Under the pieces are notes generated by a model. The model saw nothing but the letters and a program-made list of their open reading frames with translations. It had not been told where the DNA came from and did not search any database. Made by a program: the position numbers and the translations under genes. DNA of 39,903 bases from a virus (Duplodnaviria > Heunggongvirae > Uroviricota > Caudoviricetes). The DNA lies in IMG/VR virus record IMGVR_UViG_3300018486_000049, positions 1 to 39,903 of that record; one strand, 5' to 3'. Positions 1 to 39,903 of the stretch are shown here, in pieces (the first letter of the stretch is position 1; each line of letters starts with the position of its first letter).

Positions 1-21
1 AGACGTGTGCTCTTCCGATCT
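1..21. other. Illumina TruSeq adapter remnant at contig end (non-biological)
   Basis: Nt 1-21 AGACGTGTGCTCTTCCGATCT match, from memory, the 3-prime end of the TruSeq read-2 adapter reverse complement; the gpD reading frame continues from nt 22. Confidence 0.8.
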
Positions 22-5601: not shown

Positions 5602-6180
5602 TCAGGGTTCGCCGGTGGCTGACACAACGGGATTTGTCGCCGGAAATTTTTTATACAGCGTCGATATGCCCACATCAAAAATCAGTGCAACACGCTGTCG
5701 GGATTCTCCGGCCGCAATCAACCGGCCAGCCTGAGCCCATTCATCAGGCGTCAGCTTCGGCCTACGACCTCCGATCCTGCCTTGTGCCCGGGCTGCATCC
5801 AGCCCGGCGCGGGTTCGTTCGACGATTAACTCGCGTTCCATTTCTGCAAGAGCGCCCATGATGTGAAAGAAAAATCGCCCCATCGGGGTTGAGGTATCAA
5901 TACTGTCGGTCAGGCTTCTGAAATTAACCCCTCGCTGGCGAAGCTCTTCAGTCATAGAGACAAGATGGCGCATGCTACGCCCGAGCCTGTCGAGCTTCCA
6001 GACAACGAGAGTATCACCGGCATTAAGTTGCCTGAGTGCGCGATTTAACCCTGGCCTGTTTGTCGATTTACCGCTGATTTTATCCTCGAAAATTAGCTCA
6101 CATCCCGACCGTTCCAGCGCGTCACGCTGTAGCGCGGTATTTTGTTCATTTGTTGATACGCGCACATAGCCAACCTGCAT
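5602..6180 (-). CDS. Serine recombinase, DNA invertase of the Hin/Gin/Pin/Cin family
   Basis: [13 protein letters not shown]... with catalytic Ser in the RVS motif, conserved [12 protein letters not shown] and C-terminal HTH; ATG at 6180 preferred over the TTG at 6198; adjacent to an invertible segment. Confidence 0.9.
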
Positions 6181-6236
6181 TTGTTTTCCCTCATGCAAAA
6201 GCCCAAATGATGCCAGCTAGGGGGGAAAACTACATT

Positions 6237-6260
6237 TTCTTAAACGTTGGTTTAGGAGAA
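6237..6260. repeat. gix-like inversion crossover site (invertase-proximal)
   Basis: TTCTTAAACGTTGGTTTAGGAGAA; inverted copy of the half-site GGTTT(A/G)GGAGAA also at 8160-8185 and again at 39796-39819; resembles the 12-2-12 gix/hix architecture. Confidence 0.6.
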
Positions 6261-6599
6261 GCGGCTAAAAGGAATGTAGGGACAGGGGCAAATCAGATAC
6301 CTGATATGGGTAGCTTCACGCTTTCTGTTTCAGGTACTGGATATCAAAAATTACCATCAGGTTTTATTCTTCAGTGGGGCTCAATCGGCGCACCAGGCAT
6401 TGCACAGGATGTAGTAACCCATTTCCCGATTGCATTTCCAAACAGATGTCTGCGTGTTTTGGTCTCACAAGACTACACACCAGATAGCGGGGCTGTTGGT
6501 TATATTGCCTGTGCAGGTTTTAGTCCCGACCCGGTTAAATTTATATCCAGAGCCAGTACTCCTGGCCTCGGCGCTTCATTTTTAGCGTTAGGCTGTTAA
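6237..6599 (+). CDS. Alternative tail-fibre C-terminal variable segment (currently silent orientation, no own start)
   Basis: Plus-strand frame open through the crossover site reading [11 protein letters not shown]..., in the same frame relative to the site as LTYLGLGEGSA in H, so inversion would fuse it in frame to the constant part of H. Confidence 0.55.
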
Positions 6600-6620
6600 T
6601 TTAGCTATATGGAGTGAAAA

Positions 6621-7061
6621 ATGAATTACATATATTCCGCGACTACAAACTCTTTCTATCCGCTGGAGATGAAAGAGGATTACACTCAAGCTGACTCATG
6701 GCCAGATGATGCTGTTGAAGTTGATGAGCAAGTGTATATTGCGTTTTCCGGATTACCGCCGAAAGGAAAAATCCGTATCGCTGGAGAAAATGGTTTTCCT
6801 GCATGGTCTGAAATTCCACCACCAACACATGAGGAACAGATTGCTGCAGCCGAACAGGAAAAGCAGCAACTGATTAATCAGGCCAACGATTATATGAACA
6901 GTAAACAATGGCCTGGTAAAGCGGCTATTGGTCGTCTGAAAGGTGAGGAACTGGCGCAATATAATTTGTGGCTGGATTATCTGGACGCACTGGAGCTGGT
7001 CGATACTTCCGGTGCGCCAGATATTGAATGGCCTACGCCTCCGGCAGTTCAGGCCAGATGA
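6621..7061 (+). CDS. Alternative tail-fibre assembly chaperone (silent-orientation partner)
   Basis: 146 aa ORF directly after the alternative fibre segment; its C-terminus converges on that of the minus-strand chaperone. Confidence 0.7.
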   Translation: MNYIYSATTNSFYPLEMKEDYTQADSWPDDAVEVDEQVYIAFSGLPPKGKIRIAGENGFPAWSEIPPPTHEEQIAAAEQEKQQLINQANDYMNSKQWPGKAAIGRLKGEELAQYNLWLDYLDALELVDTSGAPDIEWPTPPAVQAR

Positions 7062-7638
7062 CATCCGGCGCGGTGCTGGTATCTGTTGCCGTCACCGCGT
7101 CAATGTAATCCAGCGCAGCGTTAAGTCGGGCGGTTTCTGCCTGCGTCAGATTCCGTCCGGCCTGCAATTTCAGCTGAATCAGACTAATGGAAGCCATTGC
7201 AGTATCAATCAGTGACTGACGCTGTGCTTCTGCCGCGCCTACTGCGGCGCTATGCTGTGCCACAGTATCTGTTACCCATTTCTCACCATCCCATTCATCG
7301 TATGGCGTTAACGGGGCGATAGTGGTTGTATTTTCAGGATAATCACCCGGAGCTGTGATTTCTTTCGATTCTCCTGTTTCGGTGCTATAGATGATTTCAC
7401 CGCGATGGTCTGACACATATTCCCATGAGTTTAAATCTGCCGAACGGCAGATTGCATAACCCGCCTTATGTGTGCCAGGAGCATCTAAACAGGAATATGC
7501 AGGGATACCGACACCCACAGCAAGATATTCAGTTGATGCAGAAATATACTCCCGTGTCTCACTGTCATAGTTATAAACGGTAATCTCTCCTGCCTTTGTG
7601 GCAATAAATTTACTATTCAAGATGGCGTTATACATCAT
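7033..7638 (-). CDS. G: Tail-fibre assembly chaperone gpG
   Basis: 201 aa ORF immediately after H, start overlapping the H stop. Confidence 0.8.
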   Translation of the reverse strand: MMYNAILNSKFIATKAGEITVYNYDSETREYISASTEYLAVGVGIPAYSCLDAPGTHKAGYAICRSADLNSWEYVSDHRGEIIYSTETGESKEITAPGDYPENTTTIAPLTPYDEWDGEKWVTDTVAQHSAAVGAAEAQRQSLIDTAMASISLIQLKLQAGRNLTQAETARLNAALDYIDAVTATDTSTAPDVIWPELPEA

Positions 7639-9221
7639 GCAGCCCTCACAATGTAATTAAATGAAATATTACGTGGGCGTGTCTCTGCTGCACCGACAAT
7701 ACTGGTACTCAACCCCGTCGCTGTTCGTTTGTTATTTTTATTTCCTTCAATCAGACAGTTGTAATCATCATTACCAATTAACGAATTAGTGGCATCAATA
7801 CCGTCCGGGGACAAGGCATTAGTTGTAGAACTTAAAGTCAGCATCTCGTCTGAACTTGGAAGATTTTTTAATGGTATTTCATTGCGAGAAATACCCGCGT
7901 AAAAAAAGGACTCATGCCTGTGCGCTTCAAAAGAGTCATCCTGAAGACTTAGCAAGGCACGTCCCGCATCCACACCACGCCCGTCATCCCAGCCACGAAT
8001 AAACTCACCACGTAAATCAGGCAATTTATTTGTCGGATAAGCCTTTGCCAGTTCCGGGTATTCTTCAGCAGAAAAAGCGGCACCGTTGCATTTCAGCCAG
8101 CCTGTTGGCGGAGTGGCGGAAGGCCACGGAACAGGCACGCCAACGGGTAATGCCGAACCTTCTCCCAAACCAAGGTATGTGAGAAGACCAGCTACATCCT
8201 TTCCACTCAAATTGGTAAGCGTATTGTCCAGCGGTTGTTTACCTGCCAGCGCATTAAGCATTGTCGTGGCAAAGTTCGGATCATTCCCCAGTGCCGCCGC
8301 CAGTTCGTTCAGTGTATCCAGTGCAGCAGGTGCAGAACCCACCATTCCTGCAATCGCCGATTTCACAAAAGCCGTAGTGGCAATCTGTGTATTGTTGACC
8401 GACTGCGCCGCCGTGGGGGCTGTTGGCGTTCCGGTGAGTGCCGGACTCGACAACGGTGCTTTTAGTGCCAGCGCATTGTTAATGGTGGTACTGAAATTCG
8501 GATCATTGTTAATGGCTGCGGCTATTTCTTTCAGCGTGTCCAGCGTGGCTGGCGCACCATTAATAAGGGCCGTCAGTGCCGCCTGTACAAACGCAGTGGT
8601 CGCAACCTGCGTGGTATTATTCCCCGCCGCTGGCGTTGGCGCTTTGGGGGTTCCGGTAAATGTCGGGCTGGCTTTTGGCGCGTACTGTGAATGCGGGTCC
8701 GGTGCGGCAAGATGTTTTGCCATCTGATCATCCGCGTAAACCTTCAGCTCCAGTGCCTTGTCATCCACATACTTGCGGGTTGCCAGCACTACAGCAGGGT
8801 CGATTTTCAGGGTGATATTGTCCGTGCTGCTGGTAATCAGCACCATGCGCACGGTCTGAGTGCGCCCGCTACCTTCAGCCAGTTGCGGCTTATAGCTTTC
8901 CGGGCAGTTGCCCACGGCAATCAATGCCCCGGACTCATCAAACAAGCCCACTTCACGTATCCACCAACCGCCCTCGTTTTCAGGGATCACCTGTTCGGCA
9001 ATAATCTGGCTGCTGTTCTGCGGGTCGATATAAAGCATATTCAGCGCAGCCCGGCGTTTCTCATTTACCAGTGCCGTCTGCTTTGCGTCCGGCGTTGGCA
9101 ATACTCCACCGCCATCGCCCACCGCCATATGGGTAATTTTTAGCGGCACACCGAGCGCGGCGGCGCTGGCAAGTTTCGCCGCGCCAATATCCGTCAGCAG
9201 GGTATAAAATTTTGTGCTCAT
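7635..9221 (-). CDS. H: Tail fibre protein gpH (constant N-terminal part plus invertible C-terminal part)
   Basis: 528 aa, Ala/Thr/Asn-rich with an internal tandem repeat; crossover site inside the gene at 8160-8185. Confidence 0.85.
   Translation of the reverse strand: MSTKFYTLLTDIGAAKLASAAALGVPLKITHMAVGDGGGVLPTPDAKQTALVNEKRRAALNMLYIDPQNSSQIIAEQVIPENEGGWWIREVGLFDESGALIAVGNCPESYKPQLAEGSGRTQTVRMVLITSSTDNITLKIDPAVVLATRKYVDDKALELKVYADDQMAKHLAAPDPHSQYAPKASPTFTGTPKAPTPAAGNNTTQVATTAFVQAALTALINGAPATLDTLKEIAAAINNDPNFSTTINNALALKAPLSSPALTGTPTAPTAAQSVNNTQIATTAFVKSAIAGMVGSAPAALDTLNELAAALGNDPNFATTMLNALAGKQPLDNTLTNLSGKDVAGLLTYLGLGEGSALPVGVPVPWPSATPPTGWLKCNGAAFSAEEYPELAKAYPTNKLPDLRGEFIRGWDDGRGVDAGRALLSLQDDSFEAHRHESFFYAGISRNEIPLKNLPSSDEMLTLSSTTNALSPDGIDATNSLIGNDDYNCLIEGNKNNKRTATGLSTSIVGAAETRPRNISFNYIVRAA
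8160..8185. repeat. gix-like inversion crossover site inside the fibre gene
   Basis: TTCTCCCAAACCAAGGTATGTGAGAA; inverted partner of 6237-6260. Confidence 0.6.
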
Positions 9222-20525: not shown

Positions 20526-20795
20526 CTACTGCATCCGTCCGGGTAAATCGCTTTCATTGCGTAAACGCCAAGCTAACTGTTCACGATCCCAAACTATATC
20601 GTCTTTGCTAGCCTTTCTAAAATTTGCTAGCACAGTACTGCTTATAGCGTAATTACCATTCTCATTAGTTTTGATGAACTCGTCCCCAAAGTCATTGATT
20701 AGAAATTCAACAACCTCGGACTGATACAACACACCATTAGAACGAGTGGTATTAACCATCCAGTCAACTATTTTTATCAGAGAATCATTCATCAT
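20526..20795 (-). CDS. Hypothetical small protein (about 89 aa)
   Basis: ORF in the AT-rich region between Q and the cos region; start chosen at MMNDS to limit overlap; no motif recognised. Confidence 0.45.
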   Translation of the reverse strand: MMNDSLIKIVDWMVNTTRSNGVLYQSEVVEFLINDFGDEFIKTNENGNYAISSTVLANFRKASKDDIVWDREQLAWRLRNESDLPGRMQ

Positions 20796-20994
20796 CACTC
20801 TCAGCTTTTGGAACAAATAAAACTAGAGTATCTTCATGAAAAACTCCGCGCTGGTTCTTAGCACCAATAAACCACGTACAAACTGCCATTGTAGCCGATT
20901 GGTAGTGATCAATTACCATGATTGGACCATGTCCTGTTGCATGTTTTACTTTCTGGCCCGGTGTATATTTTGCCACTCTCACGTCTCCTTTCAT
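20785..20994 (-). CDS. DUF2158-like small protein (YodC-like pattern)
   Basis: 69 aa with the G..VK...G.GP.MVI....C.WF pattern I associate with DUF2158. Confidence 0.5.
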   Translation of the reverse strand: MKGDVRVAKYTPGQKVKHATGHGPIMVIDHYQSATMAVCTWFIGAKNQRGVFHEDTLVLFVPKAESDDE

Positions 20995-21061
20995 GTGTAA
21001 GTTATCAATTTCAGAATATATCTACATTAATTGCAAGTAAACATGTTTGCGCGCGCTCGTA

Positions 21062-21074
21062 TCCCCGCCACGCC
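21062..21074. other. Candidate cos (cohesive end) site region
   Basis: Reverse complement GGCGTGGCGGGGA resembles the start of the P2/186 cohesive end as I recall it; lies in the non-coding gap between Q-side and A-side genes. Confidence 0.3.
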
Positions 21075-21453
21075 TGCCCGCTTTATGCAGTGGTTTTCAT
21101 GCACATGCATGACATGAGCAAAAGCCCGCCAGTTCTGGCGGATCTGAGCAAAGACGATCCTCAATCGATCATGCGATTTCATGCAGCATAGTCATGCACT
21201 GTCAAGGAAGTGAAAATCCGTATCTGAATGGCCACTTGAAAAACGGATCATACGGGTTTACAAAGATGAATGTTCGCTGTGAACGGGAAGCGGAAGTTAA
21301 CTTTCAGATAACATAATCCATATGCACGAGAACCTCTAAAATAGAATGGGACACCTAAGCGGGGTACTTACAACGATTCTTTCCATATTCACAGTTAACA
21401 CTCTGTTTGGCGTATTTTTATTCAAATAGCAAACACCAATAAAAGGAGTTTCC

Positions 21454-21789
21454 ATGAACAATATTCCCCCTATACCACAGTTAGGAATTTATGTCTCAAA
21501 AATCGATCCCACCCTACGTATCACTGTAACCGATGTTGATATTGTTGATGGTGAGGATGATTCTCCTGATGATGAATTGTTTTATTTAGTCCACTGGATC
21601 GAGGGGGAAGATGAAAGTGATATGACAGCAATGGGATTTGAGCTAGACCCAGTAGAGTGGCAGGCTTTCGTTGAATCTGAGCAATTAGTGTTTGAGCGTG
21701 ATCCGTACATGGATTCAATCCCCGAAAATTCAAACTTGGCAAAGATTCGGGATTTTCTCATGAAGACTAAACAGAATGATCATTCGTAA
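21454..21789 (+). CDS. Hypothetical strongly acidic protein (111 aa)
   Basis: Good ATG with GGAG upstream; Asp/Glu-rich runs (DGEDDSPDDE, EGEDESD); only plus-strand gene in this region. Confidence 0.55.
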   Translation: MNNIPPIPQLGIYVSKIDPTLRITVTDVDIVDGEDDSPDDELFYLVHWIEGEDESDMTAMGFELDPVEWQAFVESEQLVFERDPYMDSIPENSNLAKIRDFLMKTKQNDHS

Positions 21790-21943
21790 GTGTAAGCATC
21801 CATCAGGAAAATGGTTTTGTAAGTGAATCATCAACTTTTAGAGAGTCTCAGACACTCCCACTTCTGCTTCTGACACAAAGCGGACGATCACTTATCAAAA
21901 TAACCGCCCACCTTACGCCTTATTTCACTCATTGCCCAAACTA

Positions 21944-21973
21944 GCCCCCATCAGAATGAATCCTCCTGGGGGC
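21944..21973. terminator. Candidate bidirectional hairpin terminator
   Basis: GC-rich 7 bp stem GCCCCCA / TGGGGGC with 16 nt loop between convergent genes. Confidence 0.4.
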
Positions 21974-21981
21974 AACATTTC

Positions 21982-22215
21982 TTAATGCAGCCAGCTGTCG
22001 TCCTCCCACACCTTCTGCATAATTTTCATCACTTGTTTTCTTTCTTCATCCAGTTGCAGTCCGGTTAGTTCCACACCGTTAGAGCTACCTTTGCGAATGC
22101 GAATTACCGTTTTGGGATACAGGGGGCGCAGATTGCGGTAAAGCTCGGATTCAAGTGCGTCCAAGGTAGACTGGCTAATCTTCTGCTCTTTATCGATCAT
22201 TATTTCAATGCGCAT
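21982..22215 (-). CDS. DinI-like protein (C-terminal, DinI-like part of a Tum-type antirepressor)
   Basis: MRIEIMIDKEQ...VWEDDSWLH resembles DinI as recalled; SD GAGGTGA before the ATG at 22215; the frame is also open upstream to 22287. Confidence 0.7.
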   Translation of the reverse strand: MRIEIMIDKEQKISQSTLDALESELYRNLRPLYPKTVIRIRKGSSNGVELTGLQLDEERKQVMKIMQKVWEDDSWLH

Positions 22216-22225
22216 AAAAGTCACC

Positions 22226-22414
22226 TCAGCTGATGACATCCATTGAGCGGTTGTATTCGTGGCTTCTGATTTTTGCCATGAGTTCATCAGTCAATTCAGA
22301 AACCCACTGCAGAGCCAGCCCCTTCTCTTCATCACTACACTCACTAGCCGCTACAAGCTTAAGAAAAAAATCAATGCGCTGGAGCTTCAAAGACTCCAAA
22401 AAATAGTCCTGCAT
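22226..22414 (-). CDS. Small protein (62 aa), possible N-terminal part of a split Tum-like antirepressor
   Basis: GGAGG SD before the ATG; overlaps the upstream-open DinI frame out of frame; LexA box in its promoter. Confidence 0.5.
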   Translation of the reverse strand: MQDYFLESLKLQRIDFFLKLVAASECSDEEKGLALQWVSELTDELMAKIRSHEYNRSMDVIS

Positions 22415-22456
22415 CTTTCCTCCTATGACACCAAAACAATACTGTATACATAACCA

Positions 22457-22472
22457 CTGTTTATATTTACAG
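22457..22472. promoter_or_regulatory. LexA (SOS) box overlapping the promoter of the Tum-like module
   Basis: CTGTTTATATTTACAG, a perfect CTGT-N8-ACAG with AT-rich spacer, 43 bp upstream of the ATG at 22414; a half-site-like CTGTATACATAACCAC lies just upstream. Confidence 0.65.
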
Positions 22473-22566
22473 TATATAATAATCTTACTGATGTAAAACG
22501 TTTTTTTACGTTCATCGGCCTGATATGCCTGGTATTATTAAGAGCACGAATTGTTAACCCGCGTAA

Positions 22567-27974: not shown

Positions 27975-28916
27975 ATGTCAACTAATAAAATCACATTTCG
28001 CCATATTGAAGATCATCTGAAAGCCATGGTCATGCAGAATCGAGGAGGGCAAAAAGTCATTGAGAGAATACTCATGGCCTATGGTTTCAAATCACGCCAA
28101 GCATTCTGTAACCACCTTGGTATTTCACAAAGTACAATGGCTAACAGATATGCACGCGATACCTTCCCTGCTGATTGGGTTGTTATATGTTCAATGGAAA
28201 CTGGCGCATCAATCGAATGGTTAGCATTTGGTTTAGATGCTGAAGAAGGAGTGCCAGTTCCTTCGCCAGAACGGCATGCTGAAAAACAGTCTGCAGATGA
28301 ATTTTGCAATGAAGTTCACACCCCCACGATAAAGTTCGATAATGAAAACCACATGGATTTCACTCGAGGGGGTAAAGCAGCAATAGAGCGAATTGTTAAG
28401 GCTTACGGTTACAAAACGCGCCAAGCCTTAGCCGATCACCTTGGCATCTCAAAAAGCACATTAGCTACACGATACATGCGAGACATTTTTCCGGCAGACT
28501 GGATCATCCAATGCTGTTTAGAAACAGGAGTGTCTCTCGAGTGGTTATCTTTTGGTAAGGGGCATTCCAATCAAACAAAGCTAAGTGGGTTGCTTACATT
28601 AGACTGCTATGATCTACGTGACGGCAAACTTACTGATCAAAGAGAATTAATCGTTTCGAGCGAAATTTTACCTCAAAATTTAAAACATCCCTATATAGTT
28701 AATTCCGCAAATGATTCATATATCATTAGCAAAGAGGAGTATCTTAGCGATGGTCTATGGTTAGTATCTATTAACGGAGAATTTACTTTTAGAGACATAT
28801 TTAAACTTCCAAACAATCGCATCCGCGTTGAAAACACAAAATATAGCTTTGAATGCGATAAAGAAGATTTGGAATTTAATAATAAAGTTAAAGGAATAAT
28901 TAGAAAAAGGGTTTAA
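27975..28916 (+). CDS. cI: CI-like immunity repressor with tandemly duplicated N-terminal DNA-binding domain
   Basis: 313 aa; residues about 23-85 and 122-184 are an internal repeat (about 60 percent identical, IERI..AYG.K.RQA...HLGIS.ST.A.RY.RD.FPADW...C.ETG.S.EWL.FG); C-terminal domain SDGLWLVSINGEF...; divergent from Apl/Cox. Confidence 0.8.
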   Translation: MSTNKITFRHIEDHLKAMVMQNRGGQKVIERILMAYGFKSRQAFCNHLGISQSTMANRYARDTFPADWVVICSMETGASIEWLAFGLDAEEGVPVPSPERHAEKQSADEFCNEVHTPTIKFDNENHMDFTRGGKAAIERIVKAYGYKTRQALADHLGISKSTLATRYMRDIFPADWIIQCCLETGVSLEWLSFGKGHSNQTKLSGLLTLDCYDLRDGKLTDQRELIVSSEILPQNLKHPYIVNSANDSYIISKEEYLSDGLWLVSINGEFTFRDIFKLPNNRIRVENTKYSFECDKEDLEFNNKVKGIIRKRV

Positions 28917-28918
28917 CA

Positions 28919-29968
28919 ATGAGCTTTACGAAAACTATTGAATTTGCAAACTATACCTTAAATTTTGGAGAGGACAAAGTTCTCTTAGATGCTTTTGATT
29001 GCATTGTTTTTCCTTCATTTTTCGCACAAAAATACGTTAGAAAATTTAAAGATACAGAATATTTCTTTACTGACACAAAAATTATTACGTTAGATACTAC
29101 AGATTCAGATTTTATTGGTCCTATAGTTCCAACAATTGCATTGTGTGGCCGCATTATAAAAAAGACCATATTTAAACGAGATCAAATATTTCAAGATGGT
29201 CAATTAATTCGAGATCACAGGACGCTAGAAAGTCACCCCAGCTCTATTTTTATTCTTATGCTTAATGAGCACAGATTAATGCTTTGCAAAGAGGTTTCTG
29301 GAGCCCCTACCCTAGAAGAATTTGAAAATACTAGCAAGTATTGCCTTGCACAGCGATATAATTCTTTTGTGGATTACGAAGTAAAAAAAAATAAAAGAAT
29401 TAGAAAGAAAAAATCATACATTGATCGACTGTATAAAAAAGATATTTATCGTAAACTAGGAGCCCCCAAATTACGGGTTACCCCCTTAACAGACCCAAGA
29501 TCATTGAGCAATTTTGTTGAACTCTTTTCTGTTGTTAATAGATTATCAATTGAGTTATTACCAACAAATAGTGAAAATATATCTCTTGATGGCTTCTGGA
29601 GGAAATTTGAACAAGAAAAAGAAGAACTTAATAGTAGTAAAGCTCAATTAGTATACACAAATAAAAATGAAGATGGTTTAAATTCTGATGCCGTCATTCA
29701 AAAAACAACAAGTGCAACCCGAATGGCCAACTCTAAAGTAATTATCAGTGGTAAAGATGAACACGGAGCAAGGCTATCAGGGAATAATGATAGTTTTACT
29801 CTAAAAGCATCAAGGCCACAACTTAGTTCTGATTTGGAAAGAGCTGCTCAAGAGGCGTATTCTGCATTCACAGAATTAAAGGATGAAGGAAATATTATTA
29901 TTCCAGAACGTGAAGATTATACTAAAATTTTTTCCAAGTTAACATCAATAATTTCTAGGTGGCTATAG
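28919..29968 (+). CDS. Cargo protein 1 of repressor-linked cassette, function unknown (349 aa, soluble)
   Basis: ATG 2 nt after the repressor stop; AT-rich; basic patch KKNKRIRKKKSYIDRLYKKDIYRK; no catalytic motif recognised. Confidence 0.7.
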   Translation: MSFTKTIEFANYTLNFGEDKVLLDAFDCIVFPSFFAQKYVRKFKDTEYFFTDTKIITLDTTDSDFIGPIVPTIALCGRIIKKTIFKRDQIFQDGQLIRDHRTLESHPSSIFILMLNEHRLMLCKEVSGAPTLEEFENTSKYCLAQRYNSFVDYEVKKNKRIRKKKSYIDRLYKKDIYRKLGAPKLRVTPLTDPRSLSNFVELFSVVNRLSIELLPTNSENISLDGFWRKFEQEKEELNSSKAQLVYTNKNEDGLNSDAVIQKTTSATRMANSKVIISGKDEHGARLSGNNDSFTLKASRPQLSSDLERAAQEAYSAFTELKDEGNIIIPEREDYTKIFSKLTSIISRWL

Positions 29969-29969
29969 T

Positions 29970-30575
29970 ATGAAATATACATTCAACCCAGAAGATCTGA
30001 CCAAAGAGCGATCTTTGCATGATGTTTACAAATTAACTAAAAAAATAAAGGTCAATTCATTTGACTTTTATTTCACATTATTGTTAGTGATATTATTATC
30101 TATTAATGCTTTTTGTCTATCTTCATCACCAGAGTTAATTTCATCTATTAGACAATGGACACCTTTAGTATTCGGATTCACTACAACAACATTAGGTTTT
30201 TTAATTACTGGATTTACAATATTTGCAACCATAAATAAACCTGAACTTTTCCTTTCATTAATGGAGTATAAGCATCCATTATACGGGATAAGTTACTTAA
30301 AATATGTTTATGGTGTATTTATGAGAGTATTTATATATTTCATATTTTGGTCTGTTATCTATCTTTTAGTCCTTCTTTTCGGGCAAGAAAATGGATTGGC
30401 TACAAAATTACTCAGAGCCTTAATGTTTTCTCATTGCACTAAAGTTGTTGGAGTTCAAATACTATATATACTCGTAGGAAGCAGTGCAGTGTTCCTTGTA
30501 TTAACTTTAAAAACTTTCCTGTTCAATATTTATGCTATGTTAATGCAATCTCTACGCTGGGAAGTAGAAAGATAA
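29970..30575 (+). CDS. Cargo protein 2, small multi-pass membrane protein (201 aa)
   Basis: ATG 1 nt after gene 1 stop with AGGTGG SD; about four hydrophobic helices; AT-rich. Confidence 0.7.
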   Translation: MKYTFNPEDLTKERSLHDVYKLTKKIKVNSFDFYFTLLLVILLSINAFCLSSSPELISSIRQWTPLVFGFTTTTLGFLITGFTIFATINKPELFLSLMEYKHPLYGISYLKYVYGVFMRVFIYFIFWSVIYLLVLLFGQENGLATKLLRALMFSHCTKVVGVQILYILVGSSAVFLVLTLKTFLFNIYAMLMQSLRWEVER

Positions 30576-31717: not shown

Positions 31718-31880
31718 TAACCACCACTGACCACCAACCCAACTTATTGTTTTTACTCTAACTTATTGTTTTCATTAACCCGTTTACATAAATGGGTTTT
31801 TTGTTGCCTGAAATTTATGCCGTTTAAAATCATGATGTTAGAAGCACTGTTTTTTAACGATGGCGACAAATTGGCGGCAG
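31678..31880. repeat. att-like junction flanked by an imperfect 20 bp direct repeat
   Basis: TGGCGACAAAGTGGCGGCAG (31678-31697, inside the int 3-prime end) and TGGCGACAAATTGGCGGCAG (31861-31880, next to the ogr stop) flank an AT-rich 160 bp segment. Confidence 0.45.
31741..31772. repeat. Tandem 13 bp direct repeats in the att region (possible Int arm-type sites)
   Basis: AACTTATTGTTTT at 31741-31753 and 31760-31772; followed by a weak hairpin plus T-run (31777-31802). Confidence 0.4.
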
Positions 31881-31882
31881 AG

Positions 31883-32101
31883 TCAAAGAGAGAGCACCAC
31901 CTGTCCTGATTTCATTGGATGCGGCTGAACCGGATTTGACTCTTTTGGCGTTGCAATCGAACGAACAAAAGTTTCATGGGTAACAAAAGTATGGCTGCAG
32001 TTAATGTTCTGGCACTGGTTGTAACGCTCTTTGGTCAATGAAGATACCTGAAAACTGCTGCGAGTATGGGCGGCACTTCCACACAGTGGGCAAATCATCA
32101 T
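31883..32101 (-). CDS. ogr: Late gene activator Ogr/Delta-family zinc-finger protein
   Basis: 72 aa from MMICPLCGSAAH... with CPLC...CQNINCSH zinc-binding pattern matching Ogr as recalled. Confidence 0.85.
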   Translation of the reverse strand: MMICPLCGSAAHTRSSFQVSSLTKERYNQCQNINCSHTFVTHETFVRSIATPKESNPVQPHPMKSGQVVLSL

Positions 32102-32191
32102 TTTTCGAGTTCTCCCCATTTTTGCTAAATTCACAATAATGATACCGCATTATTCCATTTTGAAAACTTAAAAGTTCTCTATTACGAAGAA

Positions 32192-33292
32192 TCATTCCAT
32201 TTCGAAATCATTAATCTTCACTTCAAGCTCCAGACTGGTCGTAAAACCGTTATCCGGATTGACAGTATGCGTCAGGGTGGTAATAGTCCATTCCGCATCA
32301 TCTATCGGCTGTTTAAAGCCTCTGACTTTCACTGGCATTTCCGTGTAGAGATCCGCCCGACCTTCTGCCAGTTGTAGCGAGAATGACGCAACGCCACGTT
32401 GCAGGCGTTCCCACTGCATTTTCGCCGCCCGTTCGGCGTTGCTCCGGTTGGCATAGGTGCGATTAAGTACCAGCACGTTTTCATCTGTACCCACCAGGTA
32501 ATCGCCCTGCTTCGCTTCCGGCTCTTTCTTCTGCTTCTTAGTCCTGCGCTTACGCTTCACCGTGGTGCTTTCTTTCTTCGCGGGTTCGCGGGTATGCAAC
32601 CAGCTGGCAATTACGCCCGTGTAGGCTCCGCGATCTGCCAGGGTAAAGCGGTGACTGTCGCCGTCCTTACGTGTGATAGTGATAACCGGTAGTGGTTTAC
32701 CGCTGGCGCTTTTACCCTGTCCCTGCCGGATGAATAACAGATTGCCATTTTTCACCGACGCAATAGCACCGTACTGGCGCGCCAGCCGCATCAGAAAACT
32801 GCCGTCACTCTCATTGGTCTGGTCTATATGCTCCACAGGTTTATCCGACAGGTCTTCACCCAATGCCATCTTCAGTTTGTGCCGCGCAGCTATTTCCTTC
32901 ACCACTTCCCCAACGGTGGTCTTGTGCCACGATTTTTCACGGCGGGTATTCAGGGTTTCACGAAAATCAGCACTTCGCGCCCGGATAGTCAGGCGGTCCG
33001 GTGCGCCAGTGTGTTCAATCTCGTCCACCGTGAATGCTCCTTTCGGGAAAAGCGACTGCCCCTTCCAGCCCAACGCCAGCGTAATGACCGCACCACGGCG
33101 CGGCAGCACGATTTTTCCGTCGGCGTCGTCCAGCTCCAGATCAAGCTGGTCCGCTTCAAAGCCCCGATTGTCCGTCAGCGTCAGACTCATCAGGCGGTTA
33201 TCCAGCACAGTGGTGATATCCTTACCCTCAATACTGATGCTGAATGCCGGAGTTTTGTTGCCTTTGCTAAGCAGTTCAGAGCTGAAATTCAC
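32192..33292 (-). CDS. D: Tail protein D (gpD), second diverged copy
   Basis: 366 aa, start overlaps the U stop, precedes ogr as in P2. Confidence 0.85.
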   Translation of the reverse strand: MNFSSELLSKGNKTPAFSISIEGKDITTVLDNRLMSLTLTDNRGFEADQLDLELDDADGKIVLPRRGAVITLALGWKGQSLFPKGAFTVDEIEHTGAPDRLTIRARSADFRETLNTRREKSWHKTTVGEVVKEIAARHKLKMALGEDLSDKPVEHIDQTNESDGSFLMRLARQYGAIASVKNGNLLFIRQGQGKSASGKPLPVITITRKDGDSHRFTLADRGAYTGVIASWLHTREPAKKESTTVKRKRRTKKQKKEPEAKQGDYLVGTDENVLVLNRTYANRSNAERAAKMQWERLQRGVASFSLQLAEGRADLYTEMPVKVRGFKQPIDDAEWTITTLTHTVNPDNGFTTSLELEVKINDFEME

Positions 33293-33774
33293 GACAGCAG
33301 CCCTCCCACCGTTTTACTGATATCGCTTAAGGCAGACGTTGTCGTATCCTGCAAATTATTCAGCTGCGCACTGAGATCACCGAACATATCGGACAGGGAT
33401 TCATCCACCCGTTTGAGCGACAGGGTGAACTCAATCCGGCGCGGCATACCATCGCGGAAAAACTCCGTTTTAGTCTGATTCAGTCCCTCAATCACATACA
33501 TGCCGTAAATCGTGCCGCTGCCTTCAATCAGGGGCCATGCTTTCCCCTGTTCTGCCATCTGCTCCAGTGCCAGCAACGACAGCCTGCCGCCTGTTATTTC
33601 CGGCATAAGAACACCGGAAAGCGTCAGCATGTCGTTTTCCGGTCCCAGAAACTGCGTAGACGGACGTCGGTTTACCCGACTGTTTGCCGCATGTCGCCAG
33701 CTGCGTTGATACTGCAGTTCCTGATACGGAACGGTGCGCAGCATAAACACGTACAATCCCAGCACCATCATCAT
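33289..33774 (-). CDS. U: Tail protein U (gpU), second copy
   Basis: 161 aa, homologous but clearly not identical to 425-889. Confidence 0.85.
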   Translation of the reverse strand: MMMVLGLYVFMLRTVPYQELQYQRSWRHAANSRVNRRPSTQFLGPENDMLTLSGVLMPEITGGRLSLLALEQMAEQGKAWPLIEGSGTIYGMYVIEGLNQTKTEFFRDGMPRRIEFTLSLKRVDESLSDMFGDLSAQLNNLQDTTTSALSDISKTVGGLLS

Positions 33775-36700
33775 GCGTCGTATCCCCCCTGATCGCTGTA
33801 GTTACTCCTGGCTTTTGCCTTCAGCCTGCGTTCACGTTCATCAAGCTGGCGTGCCACCTCCCGCGCAATATCCTGCGCACTTTGTCCTGGCTGCGTCTGA
33901 ATGATGATCTGCGTCGGTGCCTCAATCCGTTGAACGAGCGGCACAGTGGCTGCGCGACTCACAATTGCTTCTCCACCTTTCGCGGGAAGTGCCAAAGGGT
34001 GCAACGGTGGAAGCTCTGCTGGCGCGGCAGCAACGCCCATCATTCCGGCAACAACGGCAGCCAGTGCAGCTGTATTTCTCCGGCTGGTCACATTTGCCGG
34101 GCCGTTAACAATTTCCGGCCCGTTTTCACCGACGATGCCAAACTGCCCGCGCGGGATATACCCGCCGCTGTCATACATCCCCGCAAAGCCATATCCCCAT
34201 GATGGAAAACCACCCGATGGCATCATCACTTTACCGTCTGCATTCACCGTCGCAGGTTGCTGACGCGTCACGCTTTCCGGCAGTTTTGCCTTTGCGGCCT
34301 CTTTACTGACAATGCCGAGCTTCTCCAGCAACCAGGAAACGCCGGATTTCAGGGAGTCCAGCGGATGCATGACCATATTCAGCCCTTCCGCCAGTGCCTC
34401 CCCGAATCGCCGCCCCATTGCCGCTGCGCTCTGCAGTTCGGCAGAGGTCGACTTAACGGGCGTCAGCAGATCAGTAAACCAGCCCCACAGCGCCTGCACT
34501 TTGTCGCCAATCCACTGGAACACGGGCTTAAGCGGTTCGAACGCTGCACTGATGGGACCTGCCGCCGCTTTGAATCCTTCCACCACGCCACCGAGAAATG
34601 CGGTGATGGGTTGCCAGTATTTCCAGACAACCAGCGCCACGCCCGCCAGTGCAGTAACCACAAGACCTATCGGACTGAGCAGAGCACCTAACAGACCAGA
34701 TATGGCATACAGGGCAACGCGCAGCATCGCCAGTGGACCAGATGCCAGTACTCGCAGCACCGTGCCTGCGGCGGCCAGTCCACCGCGCAGTACCGCCAGA
34801 GGATTCATAAACATCACAGCAACAGCACGTAAACCGGATAATCCAGACCGCAAAAGTGCAACCGGCGCACCTGCTACAGTTTTCAGGACATTTCCCGTCA
34901 GTGATGCCGTGCGGCGCAAAGACGACAACGGCGCAGTAAGTAAACCTGCGGCGTTGCCCGATGAAGCAAGCCCGCGTCGCAGCAGTGCCAGTGGTGCGCC
35001 AGCCAGCCAGGACAACGCGCTGCTGGTTCGAGTTACTGCTGCCGTAACGGAAGATAACGTTTTGATACCCAACACAGAGAATCCCAGACGGATCACTGCC
35101 AGCGGCCCCAGCACTGCAGCCAGCGCCACCGCTAAGGTGCCGAGGCCGACGGTAACCGCAGCCACAACAGCCGATGCTTTCATCAGTGTGCCTGTCAGTT
35201 CCGGGTTAGCTTCCACCCAGCGACGCAACGCCCCCGTGACGCTTTTCACCGTGTACAGAATATCCATCAGCGGCTGGCGCAGCGTTTCGCCCAGGCTGCT
35301 GAAGGTGTTCTGCGCTCCGGTTTTGACCAGCAACCACTGCGCAGAAAGTGAATCCTTGTTAATGTCGGATTCTTTCTGCATGGAGCCGAGCGCATCATTG
35401 CCCGCTGTCAGTTTTAACTGACGCTGCAGTTCCGGCAGGTTGTTTGCCAGTTTCGCCGCGTCATCGCCAAACTCTTTACCAAACAACATAGTCATGGCAG
35501 ACAGGCGCTTGTCCTGCGGCAGCGCGTTTACCTTCTCCAGCACGCGCTGGATGGTTCCCATCGCATCCTTCGTCATCTGCTTTTCAATCACTTCAGGATT
35601 GAGTTTCAGCAGATTCATCCCTTCAAAGAAACTCTTGCTTTGCATGGTGGCAATGGACAATTCACGCACCATCGCGTTTGCTGCACTGGCTGCAACCTCT
35701 GGCGCAGCGCCCAGTGTCAGGAAGGTGGAACCCAGCGCCGCCGCTTTACGATAATCCAGACGGTCAGCCACACCGCCCAGACGTTGCATCACATCAATGA
35801 TGTCTGCCCCTTTCGACATGGCGTTATCATCCAGATAGTTCAGCGCATCACCGAGCTGTTCAATATTGCGGGTGGGGATTTTGTAGAGCTGGGCGATTTT
35901 CCCCAGACTTTCTGACAGTTCATCCGCTGGCAGCTCAAAGGCTGTTGCCGCCTTTGCTGCCGTACTGGCGAAGGCCAGCAGGTCACGTTTCTGATCTTCC
36001 CAGCTGTCGTCAGGGTTTGCGACGTTCATGCGCGCACCACCTTCAACCAGTGCAGCGAAGTCCACCGCACCGTTTTCCATCGGCAACTGTTCGCTGGCAG
36101 CCTTGATGGCATCCTGCATTTCATAAAAACGTGCAGTGCGGTTGCCATTATCGTCACGCAAACCATTGACCTGCTTTGCCACACCTTTCATGGCATCTTC
36201 CATGCTGGTATAGCTTTTTACTGCCGCCATCACTGGCGCACCCATTGCCAGCCCTGCAGCCGTGGTGGTGGCTCCGGCACCTGCAATACGATCACGCACC
36301 TCCAGCGAACGGGCATAACTGGCACGCGCTGCATTCATCCTGCGCTGAGCTTCCCCCAGTCGCTTCAGCCGCGCCTCCTGTTTCGAAAGTTCCTGGTTAT
36401 AACGTGATGTTTCACGGGCTAAACGGGCAGTTGCTCCCGCATCGTCTTTCGCAGAAATTCCCGCCCGGTACAGTTCAGCACGCACAAGCGCCGTCTGCTG
36501 CTGCAGCTTTTTCTGGCGTTCTTCCAGGCGCTGAACAGCCAGCCGTTGACGGCCCAGAGCAACAACCTGACGTTGCGAAGGCGGCCCCATCGCTCCCAGT
36601 TCCTGACTGAGCAAATTTGCACGCTGGCGGGCATAGTTCAGCCTGTCGCCTAATTTCTGATTTTCTGCCTGCAGCTTTCGGAAGCTGTCCAGACTGCTCC

Positions 36701-36848
36701 CGGCCTGATCAAGCTGCTTTATTGCATCGCGGGATTTTTTGACAGCAGCAGCCAGTTCTCTTGAACTGGCCTGCGCAGATCGAAATGGGCGGGTGAGCTT
36801 GTCAACCGCATTAAGAATGACCTGCAGACGCAGGTTGTTATCACTCAT
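33771..36848 (-). CDS. T: Tail tape measure protein (gpT), second copy, 1025 aa
   Basis: Coiled-coil N-terminus, hydrophobic repeats, 216 aa longer than the first copy. Confidence 0.9.
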   Translation of the reverse strand: MSDNNLRLQVILNAVDKLTRPFRSAQASSRELAAAVKKSRDAIKQLDQAGSSLDSFRKLQAENQKLGDRLNYARQRANLLSQELGAMGPPSQRQVVALGRQRLAVQRLEERQKKLQQQTALVRAELYRAGISAKDDAGATARLARETSRYNQELSKQEARLKRLGEAQRRMNAARASYARSLEVRDRIAGAGATTTAAGLAMGAPVMAAVKSYTSMEDAMKGVAKQVNGLRDDNGNRTARFYEMQDAIKAASEQLPMENGAVDFAALVEGGARMNVANPDDSWEDQKRDLLAFASTAAKAATAFELPADELSESLGKIAQLYKIPTRNIEQLGDALNYLDDNAMSKGADIIDVMQRLGGVADRLDYRKAAALGSTFLTLGAAPEVAASAANAMVRELSIATMQSKSFFEGMNLLKLNPEVIEKQMTKDAMGTIQRVLEKVNALPQDKRLSAMTMLFGKEFGDDAAKLANNLPELQRQLKLTAGNDALGSMQKESDINKDSLSAQWLLVKTGAQNTFSSLGETLRQPLMDILYTVKSVTGALRRWVEANPELTGTLMKASAVVAAVTVGLGTLAVALAAVLGPLAVIRLGFSVLGIKTLSSVTAAVTRTSSALSWLAGAPLALLRRGLASSGNAAGLLTAPLSSLRRTASLTGNVLKTVAGAPVALLRSGLSGLRAVAVMFMNPLAVLRGGLAAAGTVLRVLASGPLAMLRVALYAISGLLGALLSPIGLVVTALAGVALVVWKYWQPITAFLGGVVEGFKAAAGPISAAFEPLKPVFQWIGDKVQALWGWFTDLLTPVKSTSAELQSAAAMGRRFGEALAEGLNMVMHPLDSLKSGVSWLLEKLGIVSKEAAKAKLPESVTRQQPATVNADGKVMMPSGGFPSWGYGFAGMYDSGGYIPRGQFGIVGENGPEIVNGPANVTSRRNTAALAAVVAGMMGVAAAPAELPPLHPLALPAKGGEAIVSRAATVPLVQRIEAPTQIIIQTQPGQSAQDIAREVARQLDERERRLKAKARSNYSDQGGYDA

Positions 36849-37277
36849 CGTTGGCCCCGCTTCTCTGAATCGCTTTATACCGCCATTCCAGCACTTCGGT
36901 CAGCGGCATAACGTCAGTAACGGATGGCGGCCAGTGAAAAATGGTGGCGATATCTGCCACCAGATCGTCAACCGTCAGGCTGTCGGTAAACCGGCAAGCA
37001 CCGACTTCTTCAACAAAAAAGTGACAACCTCAACCGACATGGCAGTGAGATCTGCCGGGTCCATCTCTGCAATTTCCTGTGCAGTCAGTGCCGGACTGGA
37101 GATGCGGGGGATCACGGTCATCATCGCGTTTACATCCATATCCATAATGGCCTGCAGGCGTGTACCGCGCAGCGCACCGGACTGCGGTTTACGCAGCACA
37201 ATTTCGGTGATTTCTGTTTTACCGCGCTTGATGGGGGTATCCAGTTGAATGGTCTTTTCAGTCTGCTTATCGCTCAT
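36841..37277 (-). CDS. E+E-prime -1 frameshift product, second copy
   Basis: Plus-strand CAAAAAA at 37014-37020; -1 frame open to a TGA at 36841-36843 overlapping the T start. Confidence 0.6.
36975..37277 (-). CDS. E: Tail assembly chaperone gpE, second copy
   Basis: 100 aa, ends just after a TTTTTTG slippery site. Confidence 0.8.
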   Translation of the reverse strand: MSDKQTEKTIQLDTPIKRGKTEITEIVLRKPQSGALRGTRLQAIMDMDVNAMMTVIPRISSPALTAQEIAEMDPADLTAMSVEVVTFLLKKSVLAGLPTA

Positions 37278-37331
37278 TTTGCTGTCCTGTCAATTGGGTT
37301 CTGGCGCGGTATCCCGCGCCGTTCAGATATA

Positions 37332-37847
37332 TCAGAGGCCGAGGGCGTTGCGGTGCGCTTCCATCAGGTCCACACCGTCCACAATTTCCACCATGTTGAT
37401 AAGGTCCACTTCATAGAGCACCTCACCATTGATGGTCAGCTTCGCGTAGCTGTTGGTACTGGTCACTTTGGTGGTGTTGCTTTCGCCCGTCTTCCACTCG
37501 CCGGAATCCACTTCTTTGTGACGTCCACGCACGACAAGCTCCACGGCCTGCACTTCCCCGGTATCGTCACGCTGAATAGAGCCGGTAAAGCGCAGCTGGA
37601 TGCCATCCACCGTGGCTTTACCCATCTGTTTAAACAGCAGCAATTCAGTACCACCAATGGAAAATTCTGTGTCCAGCGCACTGTCATCAAGCCCCAGATC
37701 CACATCCACCGCACCCGGCATTCCGCCGCCGCGATACTTCTCATATTTGCGGGTAAATTTCGGCAGCGTCAGCGACTCAACGATCCCCTGCCAGTTGTTC
37801 CCGTCGTTAAACAGGTTCAGGTGTTTTAATTTGCGTGGTAATGCCAT
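37332..37847 (-). CDS. FII: Tail tube protein FII, second copy
   Basis: 171 aa, homologous to 3819-4337. Confidence 0.9.
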   Translation of the reverse strand: MALPRKLKHLNLFNDGNNWQGIVESLTLPKFTRKYEKYRGGGMPGAVDVDLGLDDSALDTEFSIGGTELLLFKQMGKATVDGIQLRFTGSIQRDDTGEVQAVELVVRGRHKEVDSGEWKTGESNTTKVTSTNSYAKLTINGEVLYEVDLINMVEIVDGVDLMEAHRNALGL

Positions 37848-37856
37848 GTTGTCCCC

Positions 37857-39029
37857 TTACGCGCTGACCTGGCTGGCGAAATTCACCAGGTACTGATCGG
37901 TGATGCGCTGACGCAGCATCAGGTTTTCAAGTGGCGGCACTGGCGTGTAGTCGTAGTCGATGGTGAGTTTTCCGGCTTTCAGCGTGTCTTTGTCGTTCAC
38001 CGACTCATCCAGCCAGCAATCACCACCAATGAGATAGCCCTGACTGACCAGGCTGCGCATTTTGGCGCGGATACCTTCGATAATGTCGCGGGCCAGCGAC
38101 GGGTTAAGCGGTTTATCCACCGCCCACATGTGTGCTTCTGCCATCGTGTCCATCAGCACCTGCGCCGTGCGGGTGTAGTTTTCGAAGGCAAAGAGCGGGT
38201 CATCACTCAGGCAGCGGGAACCCCAGAAGCGGAAACCGTCTTTACGCACAAGCGTGGTGACGTCGTTCTGGTTCAGCAGACCTGCATCGGTTGCCGGGTC
38301 CTGCAGATCCCAGAACACATCTGCAGAAATTCCGGTGACACCGTTCACGCCCACGTTGGACAGGCTTTTGTGCCATCCGGTCTGCTCGTCAATTTTGGCG
38401 CGCAGACCAAGCGCACGGGCGGTGGCATATGCCGTTGCTTCGGCATTCAGCACCGTGTCCCAGCCAGTAAAGTCAGGCCAGATCAGCATCCCTTCGCGCT
38501 GGCTGAAGTTTTCGCGGTAAGTGATCGCCTCCTGCACTGTCTTGCAGCCATACGCTGACAGGTAAGCAAATCCACGCAGGCTTTGCGCCACGCTCAGCAA
38601 CTCAGTAGCTACCGCCTTGGTGTCGTGGCCTGGCACGCCGAGAATGCGCGGTTTAACGCCGAGCTGTGACTGGGCAGATAACAGGGCTTTCATACCTGTT
38701 TTTTTACCTTCAGCAGTCACTGCGCCGATGATATTGGTCGTGGTTTCGTCTTCCGTTTCACCCTGCGGCACACGCACAACAATGGTCACGGGTTTTGCCT
38801 GGTCAGCGATGGCATCCAGCGAACGGGCCAGAGTACCTGACTCACCCGCTTTACCGCTGGCAGTCAGCACATCAGTGATCAGCACGGGTTTATTAAGAGG
38901 AAACATTTTTGCATCGGCATCATCGCCCGTGCAGACCATACCCACGATGGCGGTGCTCACCGTGGTAATAGATCGGGTGCCTTCGTTGACTTCAACAACG
39001 CGCACCCCGTGGTGGTAATCCTGAGCCAT
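37857..39029 (-). CDS. FI: Tail sheath protein FI, second copy
   Basis: 390 aa, homologous to 4350-5537. Confidence 0.9.
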
Positions 39030-39105
39030 AGTGGCGAACCTCCTGATTGGATTAGGCTTCGCCCTATGTTGAAGTGATTGTGCCTGACAAACAGCTAAGC
39101 GCAGT

Positions 39106-39123
39106 TGTGTCGTTATTCACACA
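39106..39123. promoter_or_regulatory. Candidate Ogr-type late activator site (TGT-N12-ACA) upstream of FI copy 2
   Basis: TGTGTCGTTATTCACACA, about 85 bp upstream of the FI start codon. Confidence 0.45.
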
Positions 39124-39171
39124 AAATAACGGTATTTGTCTGCTTGCAGGGATAATCAACATAATGCTGAT

Positions 39172-39738
39172 TCAGGGGGATTCATTGATCTTATTTGCCG
39201 GAAATTTTCTATAAATGGTAGAAACGCCTACATCAAAAATCAGTGCAATACGCTGTCTTGATTCTCCGGCCTCGAGTAAACGCCCAATCTGTGCCCACTG
39301 TTCGGTGGTCAACTTAGGACGGCGTCCACCTACTCTGCCTTTGGCACGAGCTGCAGCCAGCCCTGCCCTGGTACGTTCAACTATCAGTTCGCGTTCCATT
39401 TCAGCCAGGGCACCCATGACATGAAAAAAGAAACGGCCCATTGGGGTACTGGTATCAATACTGTCAGTCAGGCTTCTGAAATTCACACCACGCTGGCGCA
39501 ACTCTTCTATCAGCGTAACAAGATGCCGCATACTGCGCCCCAACCTGTCCAGCTTCCAGACAACCAGCGTGTCTCCTGCCGATAGTGTCCTGAGTAGTTT
39601 TTTCAGCCCCGGTCTGTCGGACTTAGTGCCACTGATTTTGTCCTCAAAAATCTGCTCACATCCCGCGCAGTTCAGTGCATTACGTTGCAAATCGGTGTTC
39701 TGGTCATTTGTTGACACGCGTACATAGCCAATAAGCAT
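39172..39738 (-). CDS. Serine recombinase, DNA invertase (Gin/Pin/Cin-like), second copy
   Basis: [22 protein letters not shown]... closely resembles Gin/Pin as recalled; catalytic Ser in RVS. Confidence 0.9.
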   Translation of the reverse strand: MLIGYVRVSTNDQNTDLQRNALNCAGCEQIFEDKISGTKSDRPGLKKLLRTLSAGDTLVVWKLDRLGRSMRHLVTLIEELRQRGVNFRSLTDSIDTSTPMGRFFFHVMGALAEMERELIVERTRAGLAAARAKGRVGGRRPKLTTEQWAQIGRLLEAGESRQRIALIFDVGVSTIYRKFPANKINESP

Positions 39739-39795
39739 GATCATCCCCCTGAATAAAAACCGGAGATGATGCCAGTTAGCTGTTACCTCTGCATT

Positions 39796-39819
39796 TTCTT
39801 AAACGTTGGTTTGGGAGAA
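39796..39819. repeat. gix-like crossover site of the second prophage
   Basis: TTCTTAAACGTTGGTTTGGGAGAA, near-identical to 6237-6260. Confidence 0.55.
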
Positions 39820-39903
39820 GCGGCTAAAATGAATGTAGGCACATTGGCGAATCATATACCTGATATTGGTATCTTCACGCTTTCTTTTTCAGGTACTGGA
39901 TAT
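39796..39903 (+). CDS. Start of alternative tail-fibre variable segment of the second prophage (partial, runs off the window)
   Basis: Frame reads [36 protein letters not shown], parallel to 6237-6360 in copy 1. Confidence 0.5.

Follow-up and report, generated by a model that had tools for sequence, protein, structure and literature searches.

A contig of tandem P2/186-like prophages that ends just inside a Gin-type invertible fibre segment

The closest described relatives of the locus reported here are the invertible segments G of phage Mu, C of phage P1 and P of element e14, with their invertases Gin, Cin and Pin, and the Hin/hix system of Salmonella. In these systems, as in the present one, an invertase of about 190 amino acid residues combines a serine-recombinase domain with an HTH_7 domain and is encoded just outside one of two inverted 26-bp sites with an ...AAACC-NN-GGTTT... 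core, and the segment between the sites carries two alternative fibre C-termini together with chaperones. The present locus differs from them in its host, a P2/186-like prophage, in the position of the cassette, which is flanked by the sheath gene FI and the fibre gene H, and in one half-site, where AAACG replaces AAACC. Gin-type fibre cassettes that invert are already known from P2-like prophages of E. coli. In clonal cultures of the enteropathogenic strain E2348/69, invertible loci of P2-like prophages coexist in both orientations (Goldberg et al. 2014, PMC4272514). Those loci belong to the same prophage family and locus type as ours, whereas here only 84 nt of the second copy are present. 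E2348/69 carries the tail module of our first prophage at 99.8% identity, along with the same cassette start.

In the stretch of DNA analysed (hereafter the window; 39,903 nt), two different P2/186-like prophages share one orientation and lie head to tail with no host gene between them:

22 to ~31818, prophage 1: part of D, then U, T, E, FII, FI, invertase, fibre ... capsid genes, A, CII, CI, int
31718..31882, no strand assigned, joint int1-att-ogr2 of the tandem pair, attP-like; homology to single lysogens stops at 31818
from ~31883, prophage 2: ogr, D, U, T, E, FII, FI, invertase

The late tail order ogr-D-U-T-E-FII-FI of prophage 2 was recovered through relatives identical or nearly identical to 31883-39029, which carry Ogr_Delta, Phage_GPD, GpU, tape measure, GpE, Phage_TAC_7, tube and sheath. 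The same int-att-ogr-D joint lies between two identical prophage copies in the complete genome FDAARGOS_1248, so that tandem lysogeny at this attachment site is real and not a misassembly; the joint sequence is also present in five IMG/VR contigs. In single lysogens of the prophage 1 type the int end abuts rcdA, and in those of the prophage 2 type the ogr end abuts a 561-aa Asp-Al_Ex/TrkA_C transporter gene. This gene is presumably ybjL, which lies next to rcdA; if so, both phages use one attachment site. The integrase and tape-measure proteins are very common, with 1,505 and 2,798 blocks, respectively, in an exact-protein look-up.

Several regions of prophage 1 outside the tail module deserve a brief description. 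Its CI repressor (27975-28916) has 313 amino acid residues, two stretches of which match the Phage_CI_repr HTH domain, suggesting a duplicated N-terminal domain; the CI proteins of two related prophages (L013 and FDAARGOS_1248) have 189 residues. Between cI and int lies a two-gene cargo (28919-30575; 349 and 201 aa), for which a precomputed record lists a weak DUF4747 match and our Pfam and PADLOC scans returned none. In FDAARGOS_1248 the two genes are absent and a 63-aa hypothetical gene takes their place; the slot holds a 63-aa YdcA-family gene in L013 and an IS transposase in L010. It varies among relatives and may be one for accessory or defence genes. A further variable region with small open reading frames extends from the portal gene to replication gene A (20526-22500). 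It includes a DUF6953 gene (20526-20816), a DinI-like gene (21982-22287) and an unmatched 111-aa frame (21454-21789), none of them with a PADLOC match. Across the prophage cargo genes, PADLOC and Pfam gave no defence-system match.

The fibre switch of prophage 1 (copy 1) lies completely within the window:

5602..6180, minus strand, DNA invertase of prophage 1 (Pfam Resolvase 1.9e-50 and HTH_7)
6235..6260, no strand assigned, left crossover site
6261..7061, plus strand, silent cassette: promoterless alternative fibre C-terminus (ending at 6599), then tail-fibre assembly gene 6621-7061 (Gp53-like_C, Caudo_TAP)
7033..9221, minus strand, expressed fibre gene H (7635-9221) and assembly gene (7033-7638) (Phage_tail_fib, Collar, Caudo_TAP)
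8160-8185, right crossover site, inside H

Gp53-like_C with Caudo_TAP thus stands opposite Collar with Caudo_TAP, an arrangement for swapping the C-terminus in frame together with its own chaperone. In both sites the TT core occupies codon positions 2-3, and therefore inversion joins the alternative C-terminus to the constant part of H without a change of frame.

Of the corresponding switch in prophage 2, the window contains the invertase, one site and the first bases of a cassette:

39172..39738 (ORF to 39744), minus strand, DNA invertase, serine recombinase of the Gin/Pin/Hin/Cin family (Pfam and PDB matches)
39794..39819, no strand assigned, 26-bp crossover site on the invertase side, matching the copy-1 sites; breakpoints in two relatives (L024, L027) fall exactly here
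39820..39903, plus strand, start of a promoterless alternative fibre C-terminal cassette, Sv'-like and of the gp53-like type; 84 nt or 28 codons, cut by the contig end

The predicted product begins M-I-M-L-I-G-Y-V-R-V-S-T and has the build of a serine recombinase of about 190 residues with an N-terminal catalytic and a C-terminal HTH domain (Pfam Resolvase 2.2e-53, HTH_7 1.4e-15). It aligns over its full length (residues 1-184) with Gin of phage Mu (PDB: 3UJ3; E 3e-93) and is 81% identical to the invertase of prophage 1. In one relative from a complete genome (L020, CP138399.1), positions 1110-1677 encode the invertase in two open reading frames of 112 and 81 aa, probably owing to a frameshift; the fibre segment would then be locked in one orientation.

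The site of prophage 2 reads TTTTCTTAAACG-TT-GGTTTGGGAGAA, with the central dinucleotide at 39806-39807. The sequence at 39794-39820, TTTTCTTAAACGTTGGTTTGGGAGAAG, lies upstream of the invertase gene, beyond a spacer of about 56 nt, and was paired by repeat finding, as an inverted repeat, with 8159-8185. The 15-mer TTGGTTTRGGAGAAG at its core is present at three places in the window, 6247 (+), 8159 (-) and 39806 (+), against a chance expectation of 0.14. Both inverted sites are present in copy 1 (core TT/AA) and in the complete relative L001; for prophage 2 the invertase-side site alone lies inside the window. The cassette of prophage 2 starts in frame with the site, its translation parallels that of the copy-1 cassette (Gp53-like_C 3.9e-15), and the 36 visible codons share the frame of copy 1.

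The first-pass annotation had described the last 108 nt as a repeat of the start of the copy-1 fibre segment, and this observation is confirmed: 39796-39903 aligns with 6237-6344 ungapped and at an offset of 33,559, with 98 of the 108 positions identical. The repeat is thus 91% identical; no exact or near-exact copy (at most 3 mismatches) of 39796-39903 exists elsewhere within the window. Repeat finding also detected a wider match, 39747-39903 to 6188-6344, at 83% identity. The same annotation had placed the end 84 bp into the invertible segment, which agrees with the distance from the end of the 26-bp site to the last base (39903 - 39819 = 84), and had considered the fibre genes of the second prophage uncaptured; the sole fibre gene in the window is indeed that of copy 1 (7635-9221).

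For comparison, we used ten loci encoding a tape-measure protein (1,025 aa) identical to that of the window. In two of them (L022, L023) a gp53-like cassette adjoins the invertase, as in the window, and in two others (L024, L027) a Collar-type fibre end adjoins it instead. In BLAST alignments of the latter two with L001, the strand switches exactly at the 27-nt site (query 1-772 to L001 8250-9021; query 746-989 to L001 10888-10645). The two orientations part right after ...GGGAGAAG, continuing with CGGC... in one and with GTTC... or GCTC... in the other. Judged from these sequences, the site of prophage 2 is a real inversion point, the two orientations having been observed among relatives. Two further loci with the identical tape measure are without an invertase: L025 has fibre and chaperone genes directly beside the sheath gene, and L026 has a 379-aa acyltransferase (Acyl_transf_3) between the sheath and fibre genes. 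From these two loci, the gap between sheath and fibre looks like an exchangeable cargo slot.

Both ends of the window carry traces of the sequencing process:

1..21, plus strand, Illumina TruSeq adapter remnant AGACGTGTGCTCTTCCGATCT, a 21/21 exact match to the 3' end of the adapter
39830..39903, plus strand, error-laden read tail with 8 private changes

Genomic sequence (gene D of prophage 1) begins at base 22, and the closest genomes have no mismatch over 22-2500. At the other end, the private changes are G>T at 39830, 39844, 39845, 39855, 39867, 39872 and 39886 and G>C at 39840, and they make up eight of the ten differences from copy 1. The closest relative in this region (H1) shows 10 differences over the 2,030 nt of 37800-39829, compared with 8 in the last 74 nt (Fisher p = 5e-8). 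Two informative true differences from copy 1, at 39813 and 39849, carry the allele of copy 2 and H1; the tail thus derives from the cassette of prophage 2 itself and not from a mis-joined copy-1 read. G and T are easily confused by the sequencing instrument, and the last 74 nt look like the miscalled 3' tail of a plus-strand read. Over-calling of T in late cycles is cited in PMC3141275. With an adapter at one tip and an error tail at the other, both ends resemble read 3' tails pointing outwards and hence true contig ends. A 21-nt TruSeq remnant, a miscalled tail and an adjoining repeat or invertible element are also what adapter- or error-tipped ends of untrimmed short-read assemblies look like. 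The window is almost certainly one whole short-read contig, whose trustworthy sequence ends at about 39829, some 10 nt beyond the site of prophage 2.

Two readings of the end would deprive it of this meaning. Were the window an arbitrary slice of a longer assembly, the position of its end would mean nothing. This case, which the first-pass annotation had named as the one that would overturn its view, was examined, and the data do not support it: a cut from finished sequence would show neither an exact adapter at 1-21 nor errors confined to the last 74 nt, and 39,903 is not a round number. In its favour stands that searches of IMG/VR and JGI metagenomes with the error-bearing tail recovered no source contig. 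We regard a slice as highly improbable. The eight T and C bases could, alternatively, be genuine and mark a divergent allele of the fibre cassette in prophage 2. Such cassettes are highly variable past the site, with 46 distinct 83-mers among 88 natural gp53-type cassettes, yet the nearest of these 88 differs from the tail at precisely the eight positions, and at four of them (39830, 39844, 39845 and 39867) G is the base in 81-88 of the 88 natural alleles. All eight changes start from G (P ~9e-5 given the base composition), and of the seven codons affected, six then encode another amino acid, also inside a conserved stretch. Among 1,956 homologous places in 5,426 complete E. coli genomes, none exceeded 92.6% identity (8 mismatches) and the private changes were absent. 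A genuine allele is therefore very unlikely, and the divergent peptide it would imply is an artefact of miscalling. A diversity-generating retroelement was rejected as a source of the changes, which affect G rather than A; so was an insertion of an IS element at the break, the tail still being cassette-like.

As to why the contig stops here, we consider a break driven by inversion or repetition the best reading, with a probability of roughly 0.68. In this reading the source is an E. coli whose rcdA/ybjL attachment site carries a tandem of two different P2/186-like prophages. Each has a Gin-type invertase between its sheath gene and an invertible segment of ~1.9 kb. Flipping of this segment between the two 26-bp inverted sites swaps the receptor-binding C-terminus of the fibre together with its assembly chaperone. 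The contig passes the second invertase and the invertase-side site, and after its reliable part continues for 74 nt solely as a miscalled read tail. Most likely the way into the segment was ambiguous for the assembler, be it that both orientations were present in the culture or that the cassette was near-identical to that of prophage 1. In support of this reading, two independent draft scaffolds are broken at the same spot by N runs of at least 1 kb, starting 0 nt (L028, GCA_000693895.1) and 11 nt (L021, GCA_000408685.1) past the site. Two IMG/VR loci stop 2-3 nt past the site, and in an IMG/VR panel of 124 sites several locus ends lie within 100 nt of it, a support that is anecdotal as locus ends there do not always equal contig ends. 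A site scan of one genome per species gave 3 matches, all in complete genomes and thus uninformative on contig ends. Past the break, the cassette of H1 is 95-100% identical to copy 1 per 60-nt window over ~900 nt, and near-identity of this kind would add a second, repeat-based ambiguity. On the other side, the copy-1 segment, with its 81%-identical invertase and equivalent sites, was assembled through both sites in the same contig, so neither inversion nor cassette sharing broke the assembly there; moreover, the contig stops in a miscalled tip, whereas a clean graph break would stop at the point of divergence.

A rival reading is a local collapse of read quality or coverage: the end would be a real contig end at which the assembler had no more k-mers in agreement, for instance because an inverted repeat followed by GGC had set off direction-specific consecutive miscalls. 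Such a motif has been described as a trigger of sequence-specific, strand-specific runs of miscalls (Nakamura et al., PMC3141275), and here a GGC (39822-39824) comes immediately after the partly palindromic site, 6 nt ahead of the first miscall. At its left end, too, the window stops in a read artefact and not in a repeat: between the D genes of the two prophages, identity is ~57% and the longest shared run 16 nt, which offers no repeat as the cause of that end. At least one of the two ends must therefore have another cause. Reads from the opposite strand, however, should still have bridged the spot, independent assemblies break at the same site, and the lagging-strand model (PMC3141275) predicts miscalls that copy the base before them, which these do not. 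We hold quality collapse as the sole cause to be rather unlikely, and it may have contributed to the break. Recombination between the tandem prophages, rather than simple flipping, appears still more remote and hardly to be expected. The invertase-side sites of copies 1 and 2 are direct repeats 33.5 kb apart, and if this reading were true, invertases acting in trans would shuffle fibre cassettes between the prophages and several joints would coexist at 39806/39807. Two numerical fits of the end to assembler settings were also discarded. For k = 55 (39903 lies 54 nt after the last true copy-1 difference), the fit needs an error-free shared tail, which is contradicted; the fit for k = 77 (150-nt read, 76-nt clean overlap) was rejected as evidence. 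Separately, three IMG/VR loci (L036, L056 and L128), the former two being whole contigs, each have an end that lies on the invertase side, exactly 31 nt beyond the site pattern; this common offset may be an assembler k-mer effect.

The break driven by inversion or repetition is close to what had been proposed from the sequence alone, namely that contigs typically break at such segments. With both orientations among relatives, N gaps in two drafts and mixed orientations in PMC4272514, that proposal is supported; for this particular assembly, we infer the cause of the break. The contig end is a common sort of assembly break at a DNA switch of a well-known type, a technical property and no new biological feature. 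Knowing of it is chiefly of practical use. No biological meaning should be attached to the first 21 and the last 74 bases, and bases 1-21 need trimming. The fibre of prophage 2 and all genes upstream of it are absent from the window, and its host-range module cannot be typed from this contig. For the phage family, the locus is a further case of a Gin-type fibre switch in a P2-like prophage of E. coli.
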